A stretch of 51,971 bases of DNA from Gemmatimonadota bacterium (GCA_046729675.1 JBKPGZ010000223.1:1-51971); one strand, 5' to 3'. Positions 4,395-51,971 are shown, counted from the first letter of the stretch. Notes: generated by a model not told the origin, from the letters alone. Translations and numbers: made by a program.

Positions 4395-7043
4395 ATGGAC
4401 GAGCTGCGCGGCCGGCTGGAGCAGGCGCTCGCGGGTCTCTACGCGTTCCAGCGTGAGCTGGGAGGCGGGGGCATGTCCCGCACCTACCTTGCGGTCGAGA
4501 CGGCACTCAATCGTCGCGTCGTCGTGAAGGTGCTCGCGCCCGAGCTGCTGGCGGGTATCTCGGTCGAGCGGTTCCGGCGCGAGGTCCTGCTGGCCGCCCA
4601 GCTGCAGCATCCGCACGTGGTGCCTGTGCTCACCGCCGGCGACGCCGGCGGGCTCCCCTGGTTCAGCATGCCGTATGTGGACGGCGACAGCCTGCGCCAG
4701 CGTCTCGAGCGGGGCCCACTGGGCACCGGCGAGGTGATCAGCATCCTCCGGGACGTGGCCCGCGCGCTGATGTACGCTCACAGCCATGGCATCGTGCACC
4801 GCGACATCAAGCCCGACAACGTCCTCCTCTCCGCGGGCAGCGCCACGGTCACGGACTTCGGCATCGCCAAGGCGATCACGGCGGCGCGGACCGACGGCGG
4901 CGGGCGGCCAGCGACCCTCACCCAGGTCGGGACTTCCATCGGTACGCCGACCTACATGGCCCCCGAACAGGCGGCGGCGGATCCCAATGCGGACCACCGG
5001 GTGGACATCTACGCGTTCGGGGTCATGGCCTACGAGCTCATCGCGGGGCAGCCGCCGTTTCAGGGGGCCTCGCCGGCGCGGCTGCTGGCGGCCCACCTGA
5101 GCGAGCCCCCTCGCGACCTCCGGGTTGTCCGCGCCGATCTCCCGGCTCCCCTCGCCGACCTGGTCATGGCGTGTCTCGCCAAGGATCCCGACAATCGTCC
5201 GCAACAGGCCGCCGACCTGGTCCGGGTCCTGGAGACTGTCACCACCAGCGGGAGCGCCGCCGCTGCGCCGGCGGCGCTGCGGGGAGGCCGGATCCCGATC
5301 GCCAAGGCGCTGGGACTCTGGGCCCTCGCGACCGCGATCGTCGGGGTCACGGCGTGGGCAGCCCTGGACGTCATCGGGCTGCCGGACTGGGTCCTGCCGG
5401 GCTCACTGGGGGTGATGCTCGCGGGGCTGCCGGTCATCGGCATCACCGCCTTCGTGCAGAGGGCCGCCTACCGGGCGTATGCCGTCACGCCGCAACGGAC
5501 CCCGGGCGGCGGCGTTCCCGCCGCGGGGACTCTCGTGACGCTCGCGCTCAAGGCGAGTCCGCACGTCTCCTGGCGCCGCACCATGCTCGGCGGATGGGTG
5601 GCGCTGGGTGCTTTCGCCGCTCTCGTCGTCGGCTTCATGGTGACGCGGGCGTTCGGCATCGGGCCGGCCGCATCACTTCGGGGCAAGGGCGAGTTCGGCG
5701 CCAGAGAGACGGTAGTGGTCGCCGACTTCCGGGCACCGGCAGGCGACTCCGCCCTCGGTCCCACGGTGGCGGAAGCGTTGCGAACCGACCTGGCCCAGTC
5801 CAGCTCGCTCAACGTGCTCACCCGCGCATCGGTACGCGAAATCCTGGGCCTGATGCAGCGGCCGTCGGAGAGCATCGTGCCCTTCGAGCTGGCGCGGGAG
5901 ATCGCGACGCGGGAGGGCGCCAAGGCGGTGCTCGACGGCGAGATCGTGCGTCTGGGGCAGAGCTACGTCGTGTCCGCCCGGCTGGTCTCCGCCCTGGACG
6001 GCGCCGAGCTCGCAACCTTCCGCGAGACGGCCGGGAGCGAGAACGAGCTCATTGGCGCCATCGGCAAGCTCTCGCGGGCGGTGCGGGCGAAGGCCGGGGA
6101 ATCGCTGCGGACCATCCGCGCCAGCTCCGAGCTGGAGCGGGTCACCACGCCTTCCCTCGCGGCCCTCCGGAAGTACGTCGAAGGCTCCGCGCTCGCGGAC
6201 GAGGCCGGCGAGGGTGACCGCGGCCTCGCCTTGCTCGAGGAGGCCGTCGCGCTCGACACCGGATTCGCGATGGCCTGGCGCAAGATCGCGGTGCTGCTGG
6301 GGAACGACGACCGGAATCGGGAGCGCAGTCTCGCCGCGATCTCGACGGCCTACCGCCACCGCGAGCGGCTCACCGAGCTGGAGCGGCTCCTCACCGAGGG
6401 CTACTACTACACGCGCGGTCCACGGCCCGATCCCGACCGCGCGCTCGCCGCCTACGAGGAGGTGATCCGCCTCGACTCGAACAGCACCAGCGGGCTCAAC
6501 AACGCGGCGGTCATCTACGGCGACAAGCGGGACTACGAGCGGGCGGAGCAGTTCTACCGCCGCGTGGTCCGGCTGCCGCGCACCTTCGGCGGCGCCTTCA
6601 CCAACCTGATCCAGGAGCAGATCCGCAACGGCAGGGTGGAGGCACTCGACTCCACCGTCGCCGCGTTTCGGGCCCGGTTTCCGGAGAGCAACGACCTCTG
6701 GGAGGCGGAGTGGTATGCCGCATGGGGCAAGGGCAGCGCCGACGTGGCGGACAGCATCAGCCGCGCGGTCTTCGCGCGTGCGCGGACGACGAGACAGGCA
6801 CTGCGGGCAGCCTTCGCCACCGGGCTTCCTGGCCTATCTGCACGGCCGCCGCGACGAGGGTCTCCGCTGGATGACTCAGTGGTCCGAGGCGACGGTGCGC
6901 GCCGCCCCCACGCCGGAGAGTCGGATCACCTTCGCGCTGGACACCGCTTACGACGCCGCGATCCGCGGGAACCGCTCCGCAGGCCTCGCCGCCGTCAGTC
7001 GCGGACTCGACCGCCACCCGCTGGACTCGATGCCACCGGGTGA
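4395..7043 (+). CDS. Ser/Thr protein kinase with transmembrane region and periplasmic/TPR-like domains; reading frame breaks near 6822
   Basis: Kinase motifs HRDIKPDN, DFGIAK and TPTYMAPE. Hydrophobic segments around aa 300-420. From ~6822 onward the translation becomes Arg/Pro-rich nonsense, while the +1 frame continues protein-like. Confidence 0.85.
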   Translation: MDELRGRLEQALAGLYAFQRELGGGGMSRTYLAVETALNRRVVVKVLAPELLAGISVERFRREVLLAAQLQHPHVVPVLTAGDAGGLPWFSMPYVDGDSLRQRLERGPLGTGEVISILRDVARALMYAHSHGIVHRDIKPDNVLLSAGSATVTDFGIAKAITAARTDGGGRPATLTQVGTSIGTPTYMAPEQAAADPNADHRVDIYAFGVMAYELIAGQPPFQGASPARLLAAHLSEPPRDLRVVRADLPAPLADLVMACLAKDPDNRPQQAADLVRVLETVTTSGSAAAAPAALRGGRIPIAKALGLWALATAIVGVTAWAALDVIGLPDWVLPGSLGVMLAGLPVIGITAFVQRAAYRAYAVTPQRTPGGGVPAAGTLVTLALKASPHVSWRRTMLGGWVALGAFAALVVGFMVTRAFGIGPAASLRGKGEFGARETVVVADFRAPAGDSALGPTVAEALRTDLAQSSSLNVLTRASVREILGLMQRPSESIVPFELAREIATREGAKAVLDGEIVRLGQSYVVSARLVSALDGAELATFRETAGSENELIGAIGKLSRAVRAKAGESLRTIRASSELERVTTPSLAALRKYVEGSALADEAGEGDRGLALLEEAVALDTGFAMAWRKIAVLLGNDDRNRERSLAAISTAYRHRERLTELERLLTEGYYYTRGPRPDPDRALAAYEEVIRLDSNSTSGLNNAAVIYGDKRDYERAEQFYRRVVRLPRTFGGAFTNLIQEQIRNGRVEALDSTVAAFRARFPESNDLWEAEWYAAWGKGSADVADSISRAVFARARTTRQALRAAFATGLPGLSARPPRRGSPLDDSVVRGDGARRPHAGESDHLRAGHRLRRRDPREPLRRPRRRQSRTRPPPAGLDATG

Positions 7044-11719: not shown

Positions 11720-11762
11720 GGCGGTCGGACGGACCGGCGGACCGGCGGTCCGTCCGACCGCC
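11720..11762. repeat. REP-like hairpin, family 2 (GGCGGTCGG-type)
   Basis: Perfect 17-bp stem: ggcggtcggacggaccg (11720-11736) / cggtccgtccgaccgcc (11746-11762), 9-nt loop. It lies just downstream of the enoyl-CoA hydratase stop. Related copies are at 46483-46586 and 51796-51845. Confidence 0.65.
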
Positions 11763-11771
11763 CGACCGCCA

Positions 11772-12554
11772 TCACTCCCCCCGAAACACCGCCTTCCGCT
11801 TCTCCCCGAACGCCGCCGTGCCCTCCCGCATGTCGGCCGTTCCGGACAGCAGCCCGAAGAGATTGGCCTCCAGCAGCAGCGCCTCGTCCACTCCGGTATC
11901 GAGCCCCGTGTCCACCGCCTCCAGGCAGGCCCGCACGGCCAGCGGTCCGTTCTCCAGGATCGTTCGAAGGATGGCTTCACTCTCGATCAGCAGACGGTCG
12001 GCCGGGACCACGCGGTTGACCAGGCCGATTCGATGGGCCTCCTGCGCGTCGATCATCTGGCCCGTCAGGAGGAGCTCCAGCGCCCGGCCGCGGCCCACGA
12101 GACGCGGCAGCCGCACGGTGCCTCCGTACCCGGGGCCGATGCCGAGCTTGACCTCCGGCTGCCCGAAACGGGCGCCCTCACTGGCGATGCGAAGGTGGCA
12201 GGCCATGGCCAGCTCACAGCCGCCGCCCAGGGCAAAGCCGTTGACCGCGGCGATCACCGGCTTCCCGCAGCGCTCCAGCGCGCGGAAGACGCGCTGGCCT
12301 TCGAGCGAGCGCGTCTTCCCGTCCACCGGGCCCTGCGCCGCGATCTCGCCGATGTCCGCGCCGGCGACGAAGGCCTTCGGTCCCGCTCCGGTGAGGATTG
12401 CGCCCTTGATGTCGCGGTCGTTCCGGAGCCGGGCAGCCGCGTCGCCCAGCTCGGCGATGACGGTGCCGTTCAGGGCGTTGAGCTTCTCGGGGCGGTTGAC
12501 GGTGACGGTCGCGACCGCGTCGCGGACCTCGAACAGCAGCGTGCTGTAGGCCAT
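11772..12554 (-). CDS. enoyl-CoA hydratase/isomerase (crotonase) family protein
   Basis: 260 aa from ATG 12554 (verified). MAYSTLLFEVRDAVATVTVNRPEKLNALN, AFVAGADI and NGFALGGGCELAMACH are crotonase hallmarks. The ORF-track extension to 13382 overlaps mtnA and looks spurious. Confidence 0.9.
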   Translation of the reverse strand: MAYSTLLFEVRDAVATVTVNRPEKLNALNGTVIAELGDAAARLRNDRDIKGAILTGAGPKAFVAGADIGEIAAQGPVDGKTRSLEGQRVFRALERCGKPVIAAVNGFALGGGCELAMACHLRIASEGARFGQPEVKLGIGPGYGGTVRLPRLVGRGRALELLLTGQMIDAQEAHRIGLVNRVVPADRLLIESEAILRTILENGPLAVRACLEAVDTGLDTGVDEALLLEANLFGLLSGTADMREGTAAFGEKRKAVFRGE

Positions 12555-38481: not shown

Positions 38482-41322
<2,841 letters not shown>

Positions 41323-41337
<15 letters not shown>

Positions 41338-41397
41338 ACGGAGTGAAGGGGACCATATCGAGCATGGCCCCCTTCGCTGCGCTCAGGGTGACACTGG
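41323..41397. repeat. inverted pair of REP family 1 units forming a 75-nt hairpin that includes the last codons and stop of uvrA
   Basis: CCAGTGTCACCCTGA (41323-41337) is the exact reverse complement of TCAGGGTGACACTGG (41383-41397). The inner arms acggagtgaagggg / ccccttcgctgcgc pair partially. Confidence 0.7.
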
Positions 41398-41474
41398 GGA
41401 CGGTGGAACTTCGGCGCCCGATACACGTATCCTTCCCCGGCCATGATACCTACACCCTCGACGCGAGTCTCAAC

Positions 41475-43757
41475 GTGAATCGTTTTTCCGCCCTGACGCT
41501 CCTTGCCATCCTGGGATTCGGCATTCCCGCGGCGGCGCAGCAGACCGACCCCTCCCGCCTCACGGTGCAGCGGATCTATGGCTCGCCGGAGTTCTCCGCC
41601 CAGCCGTTCGGTCCCTCGCGCTGGCTCGGGGACGGCAGCGCGTACACCACGGTCGAGCCCGCCGAGGGGAGCGGCCAGGACATCGTCCGCTACGACGTGG
41701 AGTCCGACCGGCGGGAGATCCTGGTGGCGGCCGGCCAAGTGGTACCCGAGGGCGCCGACGCGCCGCTGGACGTCGAGGACTACGCCTGGTCGCCCGACGG
41801 GAAGAAGGCGCTGATCTTCACCAACACCCAGCCGGTCTGGAGGCTCAATACCCGCGGCGATTATTGGGTGCTTGACCGCGAGGGCGGACGACTGCGCAAG
41901 CTGGGCGGCGCCGAGGCGAAGCCGTCCACCCTGATGTTCGCCAAGTTCTCGCCCGACGGCGGTCGGGTCGCCTACGTGCGGGAGAACAACCTCTACGTGG
42001 AGGACCTCGCCAGCGGCGCCATCACTGCGCTCACCACCGACGGCTCCCGCACGCTCATCAACGGCACCTTCGACTGGGTATACGAAGAAGAGTTGATGAA
42101 CTACTACGCCGACGGCTGGCGCTGGAGCCCCGACGGCAGCAGCATCGCGTTCTGGCAGCTCAACGCGGATTCGGTGAAGAACTTTCATCTGATCAACTAC
42201 ACCGATTCGCTCTACTCCAGGGTCATCCCGATCCAGTACCCGAAGGTGGGCGAGACCAACTCGGCCGCCCGGGTCGGCGTCGTCAGTGCCTCCGGCGGTG
42301 CGGTCCGCTGGCTGGAGATCGCGGGCGATCCGCGGGACCATTACATCGCACGGATGGATTGGGCTGCGTCCTCGTCCGAGGTCATTCTCCAGCGGCTCAA
42401 CCGGCTGCAGAATCGCAATGAGGTGATGCTGGGCGATACGAAGACGGGCAAGGTGCGCACCGTCCTCCTGGAGCATGACAGCACTTGGACGGACGTGGTC
42501 GATGATGTCGTCTGGCTGGACGGCGGCAAGAGCTTCACCTGGATGAGCGACCGCGACGGCTGGAACCACGTCTACGTCGTTTCTCGCGACGGGAAGAAGG
42601 TCCGGCTGGTGACCCAAGGTGACTTCGACGTGCTGGAGGTGCAGGGCATCGATCCGAAGAGCGGCTGGCTCTACTACATCGCGTCGCCCGAGAACCCGGT
42701 CCAGCGCTACCTCTTCCGCAGCCGGCTCGACGGCAAGGGGAAGCCGGAGCGCCTGAGCCCGGTGCGCGAGTCGGGCACCCACACCTACGACGTCGCGCCC
42801 AGCTACAAGTACGCCATCGAGACCTACTCCAGCCTGGGCAATCCCCCGATCATCCGTCTGGTCCGGCTCCCGGCGCATCAGTCGATCCGCACCCTGGTGG
42901 ACAACCAGCAGCTCCGGTCACGGGTCAGCGCCCTCCGGCGTGGACCGGTCGAGTGGTTCAGCGTCGAGGCGGAGGACGGATTGAAGATGCCGGGTGTCCT
43001 GATGAAGCCGGCGGACTTCGACTCGACCCGGAAGTACCCCCTGCTGTTCTTCGTCTACGGCGGACCGGGGAAGACCGAGGTGAACGACGTGTGGGGCGGC
43101 TACTGGCTCTGGCACACGATGCTGACCCAGAAGGGCTACCTGGTAGCCATCGTGGACAACCACGGCACGCCGGCCCCGCTCGGGAAGCGCTTCCGCAAGG
43201 CGGTGTACGGTCAGCTCGGCGTAGTGGAGACCCGCGACCAGGCGATCGCCGCGCGGACGCTCGCGGCCCGCACCTACGTCGATCCGGCGCGTGTCGGGAT
43301 CTGGGGCTGGAGCTACGGCGCGTTCATGGCCCTCAACTCCCTCTTCCAGCATCCCGAGCTGTACCGGACCGGTGTCGCGGTCTCGCCGGTGACCCACTGG
43401 GCCCTCTACGACAACGTGTACACCGAGCGGTTCAACGGGCTCATCACCGACAACCGCGAGGGCTACGATCGCGGTTCGCCCATCAGCTACGTGCGGAACT
43501 TCAAGGGCAATCTTCTGCTCATCCACGGAAGCGGGGACGACAACGTCCACTTCCAGAACTCGGAGATGCTGATCAACGCCCTGGTGGCCGCGGGCCGCCC
43601 GTTCGAGATGATGGAGTATCCCAACCGGACCCACTGCATCTGCCAGGGTAAGGGTACCCAGGCTCACCTGTTCGATCTGATGACGCGTTACCTCGACCGC
43701 AATCTGATGGGTGCGCCGTCCCAGCCTGTCCCGGAGCGCGCCGCCACGGGGCCCTGA
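41475..43757 (+). CDS. dipeptidyl-peptidase IV (S9B prolyl oligopeptidase family)
   Basis: GTG 41475 gives signal VNRFSALTLLAILGFGIPAAAQQ. DPP-IV N-terminal beta-propeller sequence (WSPDG repeats). Catalytic GWSYGAF, GSGDDNVHF and ...NRTH. The longer ORF from 41343 runs through the REP hairpin. Confidence 0.85.
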   Translation: MNRFSALTLLAILGFGIPAAAQQTDPSRLTVQRIYGSPEFSAQPFGPSRWLGDGSAYTTVEPAEGSGQDIVRYDVESDRREILVAAGQVVPEGADAPLDVEDYAWSPDGKKALIFTNTQPVWRLNTRGDYWVLDREGGRLRKLGGAEAKPSTLMFAKFSPDGGRVAYVRENNLYVEDLASGAITALTTDGSRTLINGTFDWVYEEELMNYYADGWRWSPDGSSIAFWQLNADSVKNFHLINYTDSLYSRVIPIQYPKVGETNSAARVGVVSASGGAVRWLEIAGDPRDHYIARMDWAASSSEVILQRLNRLQNRNEVMLGDTKTGKVRTVLLEHDSTWTDVVDDVVWLDGGKSFTWMSDRDGWNHVYVVSRDGKKVRLVTQGDFDVLEVQGIDPKSGWLYYIASPENPVQRYLFRSRLDGKGKPERLSPVRESGTHTYDVAPSYKYAIETYSSLGNPPIIRLVRLPAHQSIRTLVDNQQLRSRVSALRRGPVEWFSVEAEDGLKMPGVLMKPADFDSTRKYPLLFFVYGGPGKTEVNDVWGGYWLWHTMLTQKGYLVAIVDNHGTPAPLGKRFRKAVYGQLGVVETRDQAIAARTLAARTYVDPARVGIWGWSYGAFMALNSLFQHPELYRTGVAVSPVTHWALYDNVYTERFNGLITDNREGYDRGSPISYVRNFKGNLLLIHGSGDDNVHFQNSEMLINALVAAGRPFEMMEYPNRTHCICQGKGTQAHLFDLMTRYLDRNLMGAPSQPVPERAATGP

Positions 43758-43782
43758 TTCGCGCATGGCGACCCGGCTGGAC

Positions 43783-43797
43783 GGACCCTAGATTGCA
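43783..43797 (+). promoter_or_regulatory. candidate sigma54-type -24/-12 promoter upstream of the psp-like cluster
   Basis: cGGaccctagaTTGCA: GG (43783-84) and GC (43795-96) have the canonical 12-nt register and a perfect TTGCA -12 box. The -24 box is weak (CGGACC vs TGGCAC). It lies 27 nt upstream of ATG 43824. Confidence 0.3.
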
Positions 43798-43823: not shown

Positions 43824-44039
43824 ATGACCTACGAAGACATCGTCGCGCTGCTTGGCTACGCAGGTGGGCATGAACAGAAGGTCCGCATCACCACCACCGA
43901 TCGGACCGAGGTCGTCGGGATCCCCATGAGCGTGGATACCCACGTCACCGCTCACGAGGTGTATTTGCGTCCGGCCGGCAGCGAGGACACCGAGATCGCG
44001 GTCTCCCTCGGCGCGATCGAGGCGGTCGAGCTGGCCTGA
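43824..44039 (+). CDS. small soluble protein, unknown function
   Basis: 71 aa. ATG with GGAG 6-9 nt upstream. Beta-rich sequence MTYEDIVALLGYAGGHEQKVRITTTDRTEVVGIPMSV... Confidence 0.5.
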   Translation: MTYEDIVALLGYAGGHEQKVRITTTDRTEVVGIPMSVDTHVTAHEVYLRPAGSEDTEIAVSLGAIEAVELA

Positions 44040-44107
44040 AACTCGCCCGTTTCTCATTGAAACACTCCCCGGGTCGGCTCCGTAGGGCCCGGCCTGAGGG
44101 AGGCGGA

Positions 44108-44371
44108 ATGGATATGGAAGGAGTCCTGGCAGTCACATTCATCTTCGGGGGAGGCACCGCCTTCCTTCTCGCCATCAGCCCCATCGGCAAGGCCATCGCC
44201 GAGCGGATCAGGGCTCATGGCGCCGTACCTATGCAGGATCCTGAACTCCTTGCGGAGGTGGACGCCCTCCGCCGCGACGTCTCGGAGCTGCAGGAGCGGG
44301 TGGACTTCGCCGAGCGACAGCTGGGGCAGTCGCCGGAGCGGCAGCAGGGAGGCCACGGCGGGGTGGGATGA
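44108..44371 (+). CDS. single-TM coiled-coil mini-protein, paralog 1 (C-terminal ERVDFAERQL motif)
   Basis: ATG 44108 after GAGGGAGG. TM GVLAVTFIFGGGTAFLLAISPIG, KAIAERIR, then ELQERVDFAERQL. 87 aa. Confidence 0.7.
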   Translation: MDMEGVLAVTFIFGGGTAFLLAISPIGKAIAERIRAHGAVPMQDPELLAEVDALRRDVSELQERVDFAERQLGQSPERQQGGHGGVG

Positions 44372-44712
44372 TGCTCCAGGGTGGCCCTCCCCAGATTCCC
44401 ACGCCCCCGTTCGATCCCAACCTCTTCATCATGAACGGCGGCGCGCCTGCGCTGGTGATGATCGTCTTTCTTGCCCTCGCCGCGACCACGCTCATTCTGT
44501 GGCCCGTCATGCGGGCATTCGGACGCCGGCTGGAGGGGAAGGCCCACGACGCGGCGCTGCGAGCCGAGGTGGAGCAGCTCCAGCACCGGCTCGGCGAGGT
44601 GGACCACCTGCAGCAGCGGATCGCGGAGCTGGAGGAGCGAGTGGATTTCGCCGAGCGGATGCTGGCCCGGCCTCCCGCGCCCGCCGTGCTCCCGGGTGAC
44701 CCTCGGCAATGA
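44368..44712 (+). CDS. single-TM coiled-coil mini-protein, paralog 2 (ERVDFAERML motif)
   Basis: ATGA overlap with paralog 1. Pro-rich N-terminus, TM APALVMIVFLALAATTLILWPV, then ELEERVDFAERML. 114 aa. Confidence 0.7.
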   Translation: MMLQGGPPQIPTPPFDPNLFIMNGGAPALVMIVFLALAATTLILWPVMRAFGRRLEGKAHDAALRAEVEQLQHRLGEVDHLQQRIAELEERVDFAERMLARPPAPAVLPGDPRQ

Positions 44713-45047
44713 CCCTGTTCCAGGTCCCGCTCCCGCCGGTGCCCCCGCAGGCACCAGGCACCGAGCTGTCCGTCTCGGGCAGCCTGGAGGACATGGCGGC
44801 CGTCGTGCTCCTGCTGGGCGTGGGCCTGATCCTCGCGACGCTGATCTGGCCCCTGATCAAGGCGATCGCGCGGCGGATCGAGGGTGGATCCGCAGGCGCG
44901 GAGGTCCAGGCGGAGCTGGAGGGCCTGCGCGAAAGGGTACGGCAGCTGGAGGAGATGCAGCCCAGGATGCTGGAGCTGGAGGAACGGGTGGATTTTGCCG
45001 AGCGGATCGTGGCCAAGGGCCGTGAGCCCGACCGGCTCGAGCGATAG
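44709..45047 (+). CDS. single-TM coiled-coil mini-protein, paralog 3 (ERVDFAERIV motif)
   Basis: ATGA overlap with paralog 2. Pro-rich N-terminus, TM MAAVVLLLGVGLILATLIWPLI, KAIARRIEG, then ELEERVDFAERIV. 112 aa. Confidence 0.7.
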   Translation: MTLFQVPLPPVPPQAPGTELSVSGSLEDMAAVVLLLGVGLILATLIWPLIKAIARRIEGGSAGAEVQAELEGLRERVRQLEEMQPRMLELEERVDFAERIVAKGREPDRLER

Positions 45048-45058
45048 GAGGCGAGGCA

Positions 45059-45313
45059 GTGGATCCAGCGCAGATGCTCGTTCTGATCGCCCTTACCGTG
45101 GGCATGGTGAAGTTGCTGACCGGGCCGATCGGCATCGCGATCGGAGACCGGATCCGGGGCGGTCGGCGCGAGGTGCCGAACCAGGAGCTCACGGCGGAGG
45201 TGGACCGGTTGCAGGCGCGGCTGTCGGAGGTGGAGGAGCGGTTAGATTTCGCCGAGCGCATGCTCGCTCGGGGCGGAGCAGCGGACCAGATCCAGGGGAG
45301 CGCCATTCGATGA
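45059..45313 (+). CDS. single-TM coiled-coil mini-protein, paralog 4 (ERLDFAERML motif)
   Basis: GTG 45059, 7 nt after AGGAGG. TM MLVLIALTVGMVKLLTGPIG, IAIGDRIRGG, then EVEERLDFAERML. 84 aa. Confidence 0.65.
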   Translation: MDPAQMLVLIALTVGMVKLLTGPIGIAIGDRIRGGRREVPNQELTAEVDRLQARLSEVEERLDFAERMLARGGAADQIQGSAIR

Positions 45314-45705
45314 TCACCCGGGAAGACATCCTGTCGTTCTTCGACCGGCTCTACGGCGGAACGCTCACCGTCGTGGAGCTGGAGCCGAACATCTGGCTGG
45401 TCCGGACGCCCGAGGACGCCGAGGTCGTCGTGCACTACGCACCGCCGGTGGTGATCCTTCGCGTCCGGGTGATGGAGCTGCCCGCCAGCGAACCCCGCCG
45501 GGGCGAGCTGTTCCGGCAGCTGCTGGAGTACAATGCCCGGGACCTGGTGCACGGCTCGTACGGGCTCGAGGGCGACCACGTGGTGCTGACCGATGCGCTG
45601 GAGCTGGAGAACCTCGACTTCAGCGAGTTCGAGGCAAGCTTCGACTCGCTGACCCTCGCGCTGGCCTCGCACCTTGGATCACTCGCCGCCTTCCGGGAAA
45701 GGTGA
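45310..45705 (+). CDS. YbjN-like / type III secretion chaperone-fold protein
   Basis: ATGA overlap with paralog 4. 131 aa. ILSFFDRLYG...VVELEPNIWLVR...VVILRVRVMEL...LFRQLLEYNARDLVHGSYGLEGDHVVLTDALELENLDFSEFEASFDSL matches the YbjN/CesT-like pattern. Confidence 0.6.
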   Translation: MITREDILSFFDRLYGGTLTVVELEPNIWLVRTPEDAEVVVHYAPPVVILRVRVMELPASEPRRGELFRQLLEYNARDLVHGSYGLEGDHVVLTDALELENLDFSEFEASFDSLTLALASHLGSLAAFRER

Positions 45706-45711
45706 TCATTC

Positions 45712-46482
45712 ATGGGAATCTTTGATCGCTTTTCGACCCTGCTGCGGTCGAACATCAACGACCTCATCTCCCGGGCCGAGAATCCCGAGAAGATGCTCAA
45801 CCAGCTGATCGTGGACATGAAGTCCCAGCTGGCCAAGGCCAAGCAGCAGGTCGCCTCCGCCATCGCCGACGAGAAGAAGCTCCAGGCGGATGCCGAGGCG
45901 ATGAAGAAGCAGGCCGAGGACTGGGAGCGGCGGGCGATGCTGGCGGTGCAGGAGGGCCGCGATGATCTCGCCAAGCAGGCGCTCGGCCGCTACAACGAGC
46001 ATCTGCACGGCGCGCAGCAGCTGCACGAGACTTGGCTCAAGCACAAGGCCGAGACCGAGGCGCTGAAGCTGTCGCTCCGCCAGCTCAACGACAAGATCGA
46101 AGAGGCCAAGCGGAAGAAGAACATCCTGGTGGCTCGGGCCAAGCGGGCCGAGGCGCAGCAGCGTATCCAGGAGACCATGTCCGGGATGTCGGACAAGAGC
46201 GCCTTCGAGTCGTTCGAGCGGATGACGGAGAAGATCGAGGCCAGCGAGCGCAAGGCGCTCGCGGCGGCGGAGATCCAGGAGGAGTTCTCGGGCGACCACC
46301 TCACCCGGCAGTTCGAGGCGCTGGAGTACAAGGGCAGCTCCGACCAGCAGCTGCTCGCGCTCAAGCAGCGCATGGGGCTCCTCCCGGGCGGGCAGGGCGA
46401 GAGCCGGCAGCTCAACCGAGGCTCCTCGGAGGACATTCACGACGCCGAGGTGATCGAGGAGGGCGAGTCGGGGAAGCAATGA
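45712..46482 (+). CDS. pspA: PspA/IM30 (phage shock protein A / Vipp1) family protein
   Basis: 256 aa, ATG verified. MGIFDRFSTLLRSNINDLISRAENPEKMLNQLIVDM..., long coiled coil, ARAKRAEAQQRIQETM and FERMTEKIE are characteristic of PspA. Confidence 0.92.
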   Translation: MGIFDRFSTLLRSNINDLISRAENPEKMLNQLIVDMKSQLAKAKQQVASAIADEKKLQADAEAMKKQAEDWERRAMLAVQEGRDDLAKQALGRYNEHLHGAQQLHETWLKHKAETEALKLSLRQLNDKIEEAKRKKNILVARAKRAEAQQRIQETMSGMSDKSAFESFERMTEKIEASERKALAAAEIQEEFSGDHLTRQFEALEYKGSSDQQLLALKQRMGLLPGGQGESRQLNRGSSEDIHDAEVIEEGESGKQ

Positions 46483-46586
46483 CGGTCGGGCGGTCAGGCG
46501 GTCAGGCGGTCGGACATGAGGGCCCGGGTAACGCCGGGCCCCCTTCATTACTGCCGTACCGCCTGACCGTCCGACCGCCCGACCGC
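46483..46586. repeat. REP-like composite palindrome, family 2, enclosing a GC-rich terminator-like hairpin
   Basis: Starts right after the pspA stop. The left arm cggtcgggcggtcaggcggtcaggcggtcgga faces accgcctgaccgtccgaccgcccgaccgc. The central stem is GGGCCCGG (46520-46527) / CCGGGCCC (46534-46541) with loop gtaacg. Confidence 0.65.
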
Positions 46587-46620: not shown

Positions 46621-47697
46621 ATGGACGAGCCACGTTATCTGATCATCGCCGACGGCGACTTCGGTCCGATGACCTCGAAGACCGCCAACTCCATCATTCG
46701 CTACCACCCCGAACGGACCGTCGCCGTGCTGGACCGGCAGCACGCCGGCCGCACGGTGCAGGATGTGCTGGGGTTCGGGGGCGGCATTCCGGTGGTCGGC
46801 TCGATGCGCGAGGGGCTTGCCCTCGGGCCGTCGGCGGTGCTGATCGGTATCGCCCCCAAGGGCGGTCAGCTGCCCAGCGAGTGGCGCGCGTGGCTGGGCG
46901 AGGCGCTGGACGCCGGCTGTGACATCTGGAACGGTCTGCACACCTTCCTCGCGGATGATCCCACGCTGGCGGCCAGGGCCGGTGCGAAGGGCGGCAGGTT
47001 GCTCGACCTGCGCCGACCGCCGGCGGACCTGCCCATCGCCTCGGGGCTGGCCAAAGAGCTGGACCCGCTGGTCGTGCTGACCGTGGGGACGGATTGCAAC
47101 GTCGGGAAGATGACGGCGCAGCTCCAGTTGACGAAGAGGCTCAACGACCGAGGCATCCGGACCCGGTTCGCCCCTACCGGCCAGACCGGCATCATGATCG
47201 AGGGTTGGGGCATTGCCGTGGATGCGGTGGTGGCGGACTTCATCGCCGGCGCCGCGGAGTGGCTCACGGTGGAGGCGAGCAAGCACGCGGACGTGGTGCT
47301 GGTCGAGGGGCAAGGGAGCATCAACCACCCCGGCTACTCCGGGGTCACCCTGGGGCTGCTCCACGGCTCTTGCCCCGACGCGATGATCCTCTGCCACCAG
47401 AGCACGCGGCAGTACATCGGCGACTACCGCGAGGCGGCGTGGCTCCGGATCCCACCGCTGACGGAGTACATCCGGCTCTACGAGTCCATCGGCGCGGCGG
47501 TGCACCCCACTCGGGTCATCGGGATCTCGCTCAACACGTACGACCTGAGCGACGTGGAGGCTCGGCGGGCCTGCGACCAGGCGCAGCGGGAGACCGGACT
47601 GCCGGCCACGGACCCGGTCCGGTTCGACCCCTCGCCGCTGGTGAACGCGATCGCGGAGGAGCGGGAGCGGTACCTGCGCAGGCGCAAGGCGCAGTAG
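46621..47697 (+). CDS. DUF1611 domain protein (DgcN-like)
   Basis: 358 aa, ATG verified. LIIADGDFGPMTSKTANSIIRY, VGTDCNVGKMT and VEGQGSINHPGYSGVTLGLLHG are typical of DUF1611. Confidence 0.75.
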   Translation: MDEPRYLIIADGDFGPMTSKTANSIIRYHPERTVAVLDRQHAGRTVQDVLGFGGGIPVVGSMREGLALGPSAVLIGIAPKGGQLPSEWRAWLGEALDAGCDIWNGLHTFLADDPTLAARAGAKGGRLLDLRRPPADLPIASGLAKELDPLVVLTVGTDCNVGKMTAQLQLTKRLNDRGIRTRFAPTGQTGIMIEGWGIAVDAVVADFIAGAAEWLTVEASKHADVVLVEGQGSINHPGYSGVTLGLLHGSCPDAMILCHQSTRQYIGDYREAAWLRIPPLTEYIRLYESIGAAVHPTRVIGISLNTYDLSDVEARRACDQAQRETGLPATDPVRFDPSPLVNAIAEERERYLRRRKAQ

Positions 47698-47708
47698 GCA
47701 ACTCACCT

Positions 47709-47736
47709 CATCCCTCGCTGCGCTGCGGATGACAGG
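47709..47736. repeat. REP-like element, family 1, solo copy
   Basis: catccctcgctgcgctgcggatgacagg lies 12 nt downstream of the DUF1611 stop, in the same orientation as the copy at 1-26. Confidence 0.6.
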
Positions 47737-47758
47737 TAATGCGGTCGAATGATCCCAC

Positions 47759-48280
47759 ATGGCGCCTCGGCAGGCCCCATCGTGGGCCATGTTCCCCGGC
47801 TCTCCTGCCCGCATCCTCCCTACCTGGCCGCTCCAATCCATCCTCCCCCTGACCACGCGCGGCAGTCCGCTGGGCGTCTGGCTGCGTGGCTGCGTCCGGC
47901 CTCAGGCCGTCCGCTGCCGCGGCCCCAACGGCCCGCACCTTTTCCTGGTCTCAGACGATCTCGGCTACCTGCTGAGCCGCTGCGGCCGGGTGGCGCTGCG
48001 GGATGGCGAGGTGGTGCGAGCCGTGTCGGCCCGGGTGCTGGTCGGCTGCCGGGTGCTGGAAATCGTGCTCGCGACGCCCTACCTCCCGCCGCCGCACCAG
48101 CTCCGCCGCCTGTTCCCCGCAGCTCGTGTGGCCGAAGGCGTGGTCGCTCTCCCGCTCGGCCTGGGGTCGGCGGAGGAGGCGCTCGCGCTCTGCGCCGCCG
48201 AGCGGCTGGCGGTCTCCGCGACGCGAATCGCGTATCGTGGCCTCAGCGTTGACGCGCTCCCGGCGGGGTCTCTAGGTTAG
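47759..48280 (+). CDS. hypothetical protein (start uncertain)
   Basis: 173-aa ORF with strongly G/C-biased third positions. It ends 4 nt before the MscS GTG. No recognisable motif. Confidence 0.35.
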   Translation: MAPRQAPSWAMFPGSPARILPTWPLQSILPLTTRGSPLGVWLRGCVRPQAVRCRGPNGPHLFLVSDDLGYLLSRCGRVALRDGEVVRAVSARVLVGCRVLEIVLATPYLPPPHQLRRLFPAARVAEGVVALPLGLGSAEEALALCAAERLAVSATRIAYRGLSVDALPAGSLG

Positions 48281-48284
48281 GGCC

Positions 48285-49241
48285 GTGATCCGGCCTATCC
48301 TGACCTCGCTCGAGCTCGAACTGCAACGAAGTGTCGGCGACTTCCTCAGCCGCCTCGCCGAAATCCTCGAGATCAACGGCGAGACGCTGGTGCGCAACGG
48401 CGCGCGGGTCATCGGTATCTGGGTGCTCGCGTGGCTCGCGTACCGAGTGGTACGGCTGGCCGCCATCCGGATCGAGAAGGCGGTGGACGACGGTGACGAC
48501 TCGGTCACCACGCTCAGGGAGCGTCGCGGCAAGACCATCTCCCAGCTGCTCCGGAGCATGGGCCGAGTCGTCATCTACGCCATCGCCCTGCTCCTCACCT
48601 TCAACGTATTCATCGACATCGGTCCGATCCTCGCCGGCGCCGGCATCCTCGGCCTGGCGGTGTCGTTCGGCGCCCAGAGCCTGGTGAAGGACGTGATCTC
48701 CGGCTTCTTCATCCTGTTCGAGAACCAGTTCGCCATCGGTGACGTGATCGAAGCGGGGGGGAAGAGCGGTGTCGTCGAGAAGATGTCCATGCGGGTGGTC
48801 GTCCTGCGGGACATCCAGGGCGCCATGCACATCATCCCCAATGGCGAGATCAAGGTGGTCAGCAACATGACCCGCGGGTGGTCCCGGGCCGTGGTGGATG
48901 TCGGGGTGGGCTACGAGGAGGACGTGGACCGCGCGCTCGGGGTGGTCCGGGCGGAAGCCGCCAGCTTCTCCACCGATCCCGAGTGGGTTTCCCAGCTCGA
49001 TGGACCGGTCGAAGTGCCGGGCATCGAGTCCCTGGGCGACAGCGCCATGGTGATTCGCTCGCTCATCCGGACTCAGCCCGGATCGCAGTGGGCTGCCGCC
49101 CGCGAGTACCGCCGCCGGCTCAAGCTGCGCTTCGACCGGGAGAACATCGAGATCCCATTCCCGCAGCGGAAGGTCCACGTGCAGGTGGACGACAGCCCCC
49201 ACGACAGCCGTCTGAAGGCCGCCGGGGCGGCCGGCGGATGA
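48285..49241 (+). CDS. mechanosensitive ion channel (MscS family)
   Basis: 318 aa, GTG start. LAGAGILGLAVSFGAQSLVKDVISGFFILFENQFAIGDVI and VVLRDIQGAMHIIPNGEI are MscS hallmarks. Confidence 0.88.
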   Translation: MIRPILTSLELELQRSVGDFLSRLAEILEINGETLVRNGARVIGIWVLAWLAYRVVRLAAIRIEKAVDDGDDSVTTLRERRGKTISQLLRSMGRVVIYAIALLLTFNVFIDIGPILAGAGILGLAVSFGAQSLVKDVISGFFILFENQFAIGDVIEAGGKSGVVEKMSMRVVVLRDIQGAMHIIPNGEIKVVSNMTRGWSRAVVDVGVGYEEDVDRALGVVRAEAASFSTDPEWVSQLDGPVEVPGIESLGDSAMVIRSLIRTQPGSQWAAAREYRRRLKLRFDRENIEIPFPQRKVHVQVDDSPHDSRLKAAGAAGG

Positions 49242-51281: not shown

Positions 51282-51354
51282 GCTGACGTAGCTCAATTGG
51301 CAGAGCACCTGTTTTGTAAACAGGCGGTTAGGGGTTCGATTCCCCTCGTCAGCT
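51282..51354 (+). tRNA. tRNA-Thr (anticodon UGU)
   Basis: Cloverleaf folded by hand: acceptor GCTGACG/CGTCAGC, D arm GCTC/GAGC, anticodon stem CCTGT/ACAGG with loop TTTGTAA, T arm AGGGG-TTCGATT-CCCCT. Confidence 0.9.
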
Positions 51355-51495
51355 CGGCGTATGCCGAAGCGCTGCATGCCCAAGGGCGCATGCCGAAGGT
51401 CAGTGCCGGCACTCGAATCCAATGTGGGACCCCGCTCCTGTTATCGGCGGGGTTCTGTCTCAGATGAGGGTGTGCGCAGGACCTCCTAGCGGTTG

Positions 51496-51580
51496 GGTGG
51501 GGTGACCGAGTGGCTAATGGTAGCAGACTGTAAATCTGCCGGGCTAACGCCCTACGTAGGTTCGAATCCTACCCCCACCA
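51496..51580 (+). tRNA. tRNA-Tyr (anticodon GUA), long variable arm
   Basis: Acceptor GGTGGGG/CCCCACC, anticodon stem GCAGA/TCTGC with loop CTGTAAA, long variable arm, T arm GTAGG-TTCGAAT-CCTAC. Confidence 0.9.
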
Positions 51581-51602
51581 TGGAGACGGGCGCCGGGCGT
51601 TC

Positions 51603-51675
51603 GCGGGTGTAGCTCAGTTGGTAGAGCATCAGCCTTCCAAGCTGAGGGTCGCGGGTTCGAGTCCCGTCGCCCGCT
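51603..51675 (+). tRNA. tRNA-Gly (anticodon UCC)
   Basis: Acceptor GCGGGTG/CGCCCGC, anticodon stem TCAGC/GCTGA with loop CTTCCAA, T loop TTCGAGT. Confidence 0.9.
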
Positions 51676-51720
51676 TCGTAGCGGAGGCGCAGCAGCAGTC
51701 GCAGGGAGCAGAGCGTCGTC

Positions 51721-51793
<73 letters not shown>

Positions 51794-51795
51794 TA

Positions 51796-51971
<176 letters not shown>

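Follow-up and report, generated by a model that had tools for sequence, protein, structure and literature searches.

Does the gene cluster around pspA in this Gemmatimonadota genome represent a new kind of phage-shock-protein (Psp) system, or are its components related to those of systems already described? The stretch of DNA analysed here, called the window below, comprises 51,971 nucleotides (nt; GCA_046729675.1, JBKPGZ010000223.1:1-51971). At 43824-46482, on the + strand, it carries genes for a 71-amino-acid (aa) protein (S71), four paralogous membrane mini-proteins (P1 to P4), a 131-aa protein of the CesT/Tir superfamily and PspA. A first-pass annotation of this DNA had taken P1-P4 for the membrane sensors or anchors of a distinct envelope-stress system and had not recognised the partner set. 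The observation itself is confirmed and is clearly biological. On balance, the locus is probably a Gemmatimonadales-specific variant of the phage-shock envelope-stress system with a six-gene core operon. Its parts are distant members or look-alikes of known Psp partner families, and it is therefore a new variant and not a new kind of system.

All seven open reading frames (ORFs) are co-directional and lie at the positions collected in Table 1. From S71 to pspA the junctions measure 68, -4, -4, 11, -4 (ATGA) and 6 nt, negative values being overlaps. The first-pass description of seven co-directional genes with gaps of at most 68 nt, four of them paralogs, is thereby borne out, and so is the ATGA coupling of P4 to the 131-aa gene with pspA following 6 nt on. 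All seven frames show a coding signature (GC content 0.78-0.93 at third and 0.36-0.45 at second codon positions, in DNA of about 68% GC). P1 starts at the ATG at 44108, which has a GGGAGG ribosome-binding site and agrees with an 87-aa protein called by NCBI (P0117). The TTG at 44057, proposed as P1 start by a mechanical ORF call, was rejected; it falls within the -35 box of a promoter. Treating the seven genes as one unit was right as far as their direction is concerned but not as a single operon: S71 has its own promoter, and a promoter of the extracytoplasmic function (ECF) sigma type lies in the 68-nt gap behind it. Thus the unit is better read as the S71 gene plus a six-gene operon, P1-P2-P3-P4-cesT-like-pspA, than as a seven-gene operon.

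P1-P4 are 29-36% identical to each other and have an invariant E..ER.DFAER motif in common; a hidden Markov model of the family found exactly four copies in the window, namely P1-P4 (E 2e-26 to 3e-37). The family was compared by hhalign with a single family, PspB, whose profile was made of 114 diverse sequences from a 50%-representative search. Word-indexed PspB homologs were all enterobacterial and at least 82% identical, and were of no use as a source for the profile. The whole P family matched PspB with a probability of 86.5% and a score of 37.2, against 17.6 and 21.3 for the reversed controls and a mean of 9.7 with a maximum of 18.2 for 60 column shuffles. Taken one by one, the subtypes gave probabilities of 90.7% (P1, 75 columns), 87.7% (P2), 91.8% (P3) and 56.8% (P4), with reversed controls at 6-22%. 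The subtype alignments comprise 62-75 columns in one register for all, which covers the transmembrane helix, a conserved Pro-Ile/Leu at its cytoplasmic end, the basic juxtamembrane stretch and the C-terminal helix. The P4 alignment is ungapped and that of P1 is almost without gaps. Since the four subtypes align in one register above the controls, P1-P4 are read as distant PspB-like proteins, a placement supported by the profile comparison and by the predicted topology. Among the curated families, TIGR02976 (PspB) was the commonest weak match of the P family (16 of 89 members at E <= 0.01), and P3 itself matched it weakly (E 6.4e-4). Of the profile comparisons proposed in the first-pass annotation, the one with PspB had a divided outcome: a remote likeness to PspB at 57-92% was found, and the thresholds of the curated family were not reached. 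The view that the partner set is unrecognised is not supported, since the P subtypes align with PspB, and the CesT/Tir-PspA dyad and PspB arrays have both been described already (PMC11237479).

The predicted topology is in agreement with this assignment. Each P protein has a single hydrophobic stretch, with no K/R on its N-terminal side and 3-4 K/R directly after it. By hydropathy and the positive-inside rule, P1-P4 are therefore predicted to be bitopic, with the N-terminus outside and the C-terminus inside. The N-terminal tails comprise 4-5 residues in P1 and P4 and 25-31 residues in P2 and P3, where they are Pro-rich; that of P2 contains a conserved IPxPPFDPN. The cytoplasmic part of 60-70 residues has a leucine-zipper-like a/d pattern and ends with ELEER[LV]DFAER[LM]L. 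An AlphaFold2 (AF2) model of P2 is one continuous helix from residue 17 to 100 (predicted local distance difference test score, pLDDT, 80.7). The plan of PspB (about 75 aa), an N-terminal transmembrane helix and a cytoplasmic C-terminal helix, is thus found in the predictions, with one long helix in the P2 model. This is the topology expected of anchors, and the anchor role that the mini-proteins had been given is plausible.

The family is large. At least 4,934 clusters of the protein collection belong to it, of which the best 120 proteins were examined; it is without a Pfam domain, and among the matches listed the named sources are only metagenome-assembled genomes of Gemmatimonadales. One 196-aa protein in the set (P0001, ENA) looks like a fusion of a P2-type and a P4-type protein with a garbled second transmembrane segment; it is probably due to a frameshift or assembly error and was not used. 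Another one (P0061) is labelled Solirubrobacterales and comes from a 1.5-kb contig, which may be mis-binned.

How constant the arrangement is was seen from the best 80 loci of a scan that covered one genome per species and gave at least 410 relatives. These loci are all from Gemmatimonadales, although one bears the label Bacillota. In local searches of the 80 Gemmatimonadales genomes, the order S71, P array, CesT-like gene, pspA was found in 68 of 68 complete loci. Within these genomes of one order, the neighbourhood survey that had been suggested places the mini-proteins beside pspA in every complete locus. Complete loci have 2-9 P genes, most often 3-4, and a partial locus has as many as 13. 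The order of the subtypes is nevertheless kept: P1 is first in most loci, followed by P2, then in part of the loci P3, and P4 is usually the last. The array grows and shrinks solely in the interval that the promoter and the CesT-like gene enclose. A 4-nt overlap joins the last P gene to the CesT-like gene in 50 of 61 loci, the gap from the CesT-like gene to pspA is 6 nt in 61 of 70, and 147 of 242 P-to-P junctions are -4 or -1 nt. These spacings indicate that the P array, the CesT-like gene and pspA are translationally coupled.

The longest arrays, with 9-13 tandem PspB-like genes before the CesT-like gene, occur in some Gemmatimonadales/Gemmatimonadaceae (L071, 1707-5670; L048, L070, L072 and L074). 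The locus labelled Bacillota (L080, JBLMWC010000189.1) is a complete module on a contig binned as "Bacillota bacterium", which may be a mis-binning.

The regulation appears to differ from that of the enterobacterial system. The 68-nt gap before P1 holds an exact TGAAAC-N17-CGTA, the sole match in the 52-kb window with 0.03 expected. A -35 tgaAAC together with a -10 CGTA is the consensus of the ECF class, specifically of the Bacillus subtilis SigW type (PMC5758882). The same motif stands at the equivalent place in about 76 of the 77 assessable loci; its spacer is 17 nt long in each of them with a single exception, and only one further match was found in 1.57 Mb of locus sequence. Across the loci the extended consensus reads CGTTnCG-N3-TGAAACA-N15-CCGTA. 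The features by which ECF promoters are recognised are thus present, i. e. a -35 (tG)AAC, a -10 CGT(A/C), a spacer of about 16-17 nt and conservation upstream of an operon. No promoters were seen between the genes after P1. From its conservation we infer that the operon is transcribed from this ECF-sigma-type promoter and not by PspF and sigma-54. Control by sigma-54 and PspF had seemed possible from a GG-N10-GC upstream of S71, and was rejected when an alignment of 70 loci gave sigma-70-like -35 and -10 boxes there instead.

Two side observations belong here. About 10 nt separate the ECF -35 box from a conserved CGTTnCG upstream of it (44042-44057 in the window, and at the same place in the other loci). 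This element often pairs with the -35 box as a GTTTC...GAAAC inverted repeat, with GTTTC at 36 of 79 sites and GTTGC at 24 of 79, and may serve as an operator or as an extension of the promoter. In a single locus (L042, 3198-3803, - strand) an ECF-sigma-like ORF was found within 6 kb (phmmer with RpoE, E 2.5e-6).

Several points weigh against reading the locus as a Psp variant with PspB-like partners. No P protein passes the PspB thresholds, the best values being 20 bits (P3) for TIGR02976, whose cut-off is 51.7, and 12.2 for PF06667, where it is 25.6. The P-x-W-R of the PspB C-terminus (an ILDxExPxWR ending) is absent from the P family, which ends with ER[LV]DFAER[LM]LA and a variable tail. 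Neither pspC nor pspF is present in the operon or its flanks, and PspB is known to work with PspC (PMC3068692). Because of the unreached thresholds, the absent PxWR and the absent pspC, P1-P4 are placed outside the curated PspB family. In addition, a search of the window with RpoE as the query gave no ECF sigma gene. All loci belong to a single order, metagenome-assembled genomes are the source of nearly all of them, and all protein-protein contacts of the module are inferred. Finally, the wider region, UvrA-DPP-IV-module-DUF1611-MscS, is also syntenic across the order, in most of the 80 loci. Conserved adjacency alone is therefore weak evidence, above all for S71, and it is the overlaps, the promoter and the dynamics of the array that carry the argument.

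The first three of these points could also mean that the P proteins are truly new lineage-specific PspA partners, whose likeness to PspB is convergent and due to the common design of a short bitopic protein with an amphipathic cytoplasmic helix. In this case the claim of a distinct partner set would stand. The identity in the hhalign match is only 9-18%, and ER.DFAER has no exact counterpart in PspB, which would fit convergence as well. However, the four subtypes align with PspB independently of each other, and the register that they share, above the reversed and shuffled controls, includes the Pro-Ile/Leu at the end of the transmembrane helix and the spacing to the C-terminal motif, nearly without gaps in P1 and P4. 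We therefore regard an origin outside the PspB-like proteins as unlikely, though it is the alternative that survives best.

The two genes behind the array are more readily assigned. The 131-aa protein matches PF22550 (CesT_Tir_1) with E 6.6e-25 and 88 bits against a cut-off of 27, over residues 26-128 of 131; its matches to the YbjN and CesT families are below threshold. It has no similarity to Escherichia coli YjfI, and a sequence search against the PDB gave no significant match. Its earlier description as a protein like YbjN or the type III secretion chaperones can be kept at the level of the CesT/Tir superfamily, not at that of the two families named, and the proposed role of a chaperone-like adaptor is plausible. 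PspA matches PF04012 with E 1.3e-48 and 166 bits against a cut-off of 33.9, over profile positions 1-217 of 220, and reaches 136.8 with TIGR02977, under the equivalog cut-off of 242.95. So it is a member of the family and no E. coli-type equivalog. Its identity with E. coli PspA amounts to 31% (E 2e-20), and it has no significant match to YjfJ. A dyad of the YjfI/YjfJ type was considered and rejected, neither the CesT-like protein nor PspA being significantly similar to these proteins.

CesT-family proteins chaperone specific partners (PMC11237479), which opens another interpretation of the array: the P proteins could be clients or membrane-active effectors, with the CesT-like protein holding their C-terminal helices, in the manner of a type III secretion chaperone with its effector, and PspA protecting the membrane against their insertion or a pore-like action, so that stress and protection would form a self-contained pair. 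A copy number varying from 2 to 13 is usual for effector-like genes, and translational coupling joins the last P gene to the putative chaperone gene. Yet the order of the subtypes is ancient and conserved, and the invariant cytoplasmic motif suggests a shared partner and not a set of diversifying effectors. The topology of the P proteins agrees with that of PspB, and the defence and toxin libraries gave no matches. A client or effector function is thus improbable. A role of the locus in anti-phage defence was considered as well and rejected; PADLOC gave nothing relevant.

S71, the gene upstream of the operon, is the least securely attached component. It has no Pfam family and 815 close homologs, whose named sources are all Gemmatimonadales, and it is present in 74 of the 80 loci. 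An AF2 model from a shallow alignment (pLDDT 89.4) consists of an N-terminal helix and five strands. When this model was compared with the PDB by Foldseek, nearly all of the top 50 structures were Hfq, with TM-scores of 0.7-0.84 and root-mean-square deviations (rmsd) of 1.5-3 A. S71 is thus predicted to have an Sm/Hfq-like fold. A functional Hfq-like RNA chaperone of the host, or a post-transcriptional regulator of the operon acting on its mRNA, would be one way to understand this. The Sm1-like spacing G32-x5-D38 is invariant, and the best sequence match in the PDB, at a non-significant E of 0.18, is an Sm-domain protein. However, no match to Pfam or NCBIfam families, including Hfq and LSM, was found at E <= 1. 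In addition, S71 has an isoelectric point (pI) of 4.5 and a charge of -8, against a pI of about 10 for the Hfq core, and this acidity makes a canonical RNA-chaperone role doubtful. Its own promoter and its place next to a peptidase gene in one subclade indicate that S71 may lie outside the module. On these grounds we give an RNA-directed function of S71 little credence.

The S71 promoter has a -35 TGGCGA at 43766-43771, a 17-nt spacer and a -10 TAGATT at 43789-43794. TA[ACG]ATT is found 31-36 nt before the S71 start in 63 of 70 loci, and in 52 of 70 together with T[GTA]GCG[AG] 17-18 nt upstream of it. A generic promoter scan did not call this sigma-70-like promoter, the support for which is its conservation. 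In a subclade of seven loci (L059, L062, L063, L065, L066, L067 and L076, at about 5,650-5,930 in each) only about 15 nt lie between the stop codon of the upstream DPP-IV/S9 peptidase gene and the start of S71. The sigma-70-like promoter is missing there, and S71 may be co-transcribed with the peptidase. This arrangement loosens the tie of S71 to the Psp genes, to which it appears to be linked by synteny alone.

That the mini-ORFs are independent of PspA and only share with it, as with the equally conserved UvrA, DPP-IV, DUF1611 and MscS flanks, a stable neighbourhood is very hard to reconcile with the conserved 4-nt and 1-nt overlaps, the 6-nt gap, the single conserved ECF promoter before P1 with none seen between the later genes, the hairpin after pspA, and an array whose length changes only between promoter and CesT-like gene.

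With the locus read as a Psp variant, a mechanism can be proposed. Given the ECF-type promoter, the operon would be switched on under envelope stress by an ECF sigma factor encoded elsewhere in the genome. PspB self-associates (PMC3068692). The PspB-like P proteins may hetero-oligomerise through their transmembrane helices and the heptad-repeat cytoplasmic helices, and their invariant C-terminal helix, ELEERLDFAERLL, would thereby be exposed on the inner face of the membrane. There it could be bound by the CesT-like protein, by PspA or by both; the CesT/Tir-like protein would be an adaptor or holdase between the P tails and PspA. PspA would then polymerise as an ESCRT-III-like coat on the stressed membrane.

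A more far-reaching interpretation combines all parts. Here an ECF-driven operon would supply a platform of 2-13 PspB-like paralogs, the Pro-rich periplasmic tails of two subtypes could sense damage, the CesT-like adaptor would read the C-terminal helix and gate PspA polymerisation, and the acidic Sm-ring protein would be a new Psp partner. In this complete form the proposal is tentative, and we consider it possible rather than likely. If it were true, Gemmatimonadales would control a bacterial ESCRT-III-like protein by a logic that has not been described before.

Table 1. Features of the pspA locus, with positions counted from the first nucleotide of the window.
Feature	Position	Strand	Description or basis
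Sigma-70-like promoter of S71	43766-43794	+	conservation only
S71	43824-44039	+	71 aa, acidic, predicted Sm/Hfq-like fold
ECF-sigma-type promoter before P1	44058-44084	+	motif TGAAAC-N17-CGTA, conserved
P1	44108-44371	+	87 aa, PspB-like bitopic, short N-tail
P2	44368-44712	+	114 aa, PspB-like bitopic, Pro-rich N-tail
P3	44709-45047	+	112 aa, PspB-like bitopic, Pro-rich N-tail
P4	45059-45313	+	84 aa, PspB-like bitopic, short N-tail
CesT/Tir-superfamily (YbjN-like) gene	45310-45705	+	131 aa, soluble, acidic
pspA	45712-46482	+	256 aa, PspA/IM30, ESCRT-III-like effector
Compound hairpin, probable terminator, GGCGGTC-repeat palindrome	46483-46585	+	folding energy

The strong hairpin reported to close the cluster was found again directly 3' of pspA. 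It has 28-nt arms (46483-46510 and 46558-46585) and an inner 8-bp hairpin, and folds with -88.5 kcal/mol (z = -9.3). It is without a T-run and is a probable terminator. In many loci the sequence downstream of pspA is more structured than the background. The hairpin belongs to a dispersed set of palindromes made of GGCGGTC(A/G) octamer repeats, others of which lie at about 11720-11775 and at 51796-51845; 12 matches to a 15-mer were found where 0.8 are expected. One of these palindromes lies directly 3' of a tRNA cluster, Thr(tgt)-Tyr(gta)-Gly(tcc)-Thr(ggt), at 51282-51793 on the + strand, and the family looks like the usual terminator of the genome or like a repetitive extragenic palindromic (REP-like) element. 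The flanks of the module encode UvrA and a DPP-IV-type S9 peptidase on one side (38482-43757), and a DUF1611 protein and an MscS-family channel on the other (46621-49241). The MscS gene noted earlier downstream of the cluster is indeed there, at 48285-49241; it is part of the general synteny and so does not count as evidence of a linkage to the Psp module.

Four things are truly new: the way in which the parts are combined, the promoter of the ECF type, an array that varies in length throughout the order and yet keeps its subtype order, and the neighbouring acidic protein with the predicted Sm fold. The arrangement is not known from earlier descriptions, and its regulation is probably new as well. 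The text and supplement of the survey by Ravi et al. 2024 (PMC11237479) mention neither Gemmatimonadetes nor an Hfq/Sm-like partner, nor do they combine a PspB array with a CesT-like protein, and a literature search on PspA in Gemmatimonas or Gemmatimonadetes gave no relevant result. The PspA/Vipp1/ESCRT-III proteins are universal membrane-repair machines whose recruitment and control outside the proteobacteria and Firmicutes are poorly known. The locus is an order-wide, sharply defined system in an abundant and little-studied soil phylum. It would extend PspB-like proteins well beyond the proteobacteria, by a family of at least 4,900 clusters without a Pfam model, and it unites two themes so far separate, the tandem PspB array and the CesT/Tir-PspA dyad. 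Through the near-invariant ECF promoter, the cognate sigma factor and the remaining regulon could be traced. For the stoichiometry of PspA anchors, an array that varies in length while its subtype order stays fixed offers a convenient natural experiment.

The PspF-PspABC system of enterobacteria (E. coli, Yersinia) has two things in common with the locus: PspA as the effector, and a small bitopic partner with an N-terminal transmembrane segment and a cytoplasmic helix, PspB, with which the P subtypes align. In contrast, the window is without pspC, pspF and a sigma-54 promoter and has an ECF-type promoter instead; 2-13 PspB-like genes precede pspA, a CesT-like gene stands between the array and pspA, and the P proteins fail the thresholds of the PspB family.

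A tandem array of PspB-type genes within a pspA operon is known from the alphaproteobacterium Erythrobacter litoralis (AOL22920.1), where PspB is duplicated in the order PspA->PspB->PspC+PspB->4x SIG+PspB->PspB (Ravi et al. 2024, PMC11237479). Unlike here, the array of E. litoralis follows pspA, includes a PspC-PspB fusion and forms with signal peptides, and is paired with PspF; a CesT-like gene is not listed in that operon (PMC11237479).

The other half of the locus resembles the CesT/Tir-PspA dyads described by the same authors (Ravi et al. 2024, PMC11237479), in that a co-directional CesT/Tir gene stands immediately upstream of pspA, with a gap of 6 nt in the window and in most of the loci. 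The described dyads lie beside genes for band-7/flotillin, AAA+ and YqiJ proteins, or for spermine synthase, YjfL and a lipoprotein (PMC11237479). They contain PspA of the YjfJ type or DUF2170, whereas the PspA found here is nearer to classical PspA and its CesT-like neighbour is unlike YjfI. S71 in turn resembles Hfq/Sm proteins in its predicted N-terminal helix and five bent strands, and differs from them in its strong acidity and the lack of a significant sequence match, so that the likeness is one of predicted fold.

In B. subtilis, two integral membrane proteins, YdjG and YdjH, and the soluble YdjI are required for PspA to be recruited, all encoded in the SigW-controlled pspA-ydjGHI operon (PMC8581546). 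The partners are unrelated to those found here (a zinc-ribbon transmembrane protein, a TPM and an SPFH protein), pspA stands first in that operon, and the host belongs to another phylum. Nevertheless, both operons have an ECF-class promoter, with TGAAAC and CGTA boxes of the SigW type, and YdjG and YdjH as anchors, YdjI as soluble adaptor and PspA form the closest functional analogue of the mechanism proposed for the P proteins, the CesT-like protein and PspA of Gemmatimonadales.

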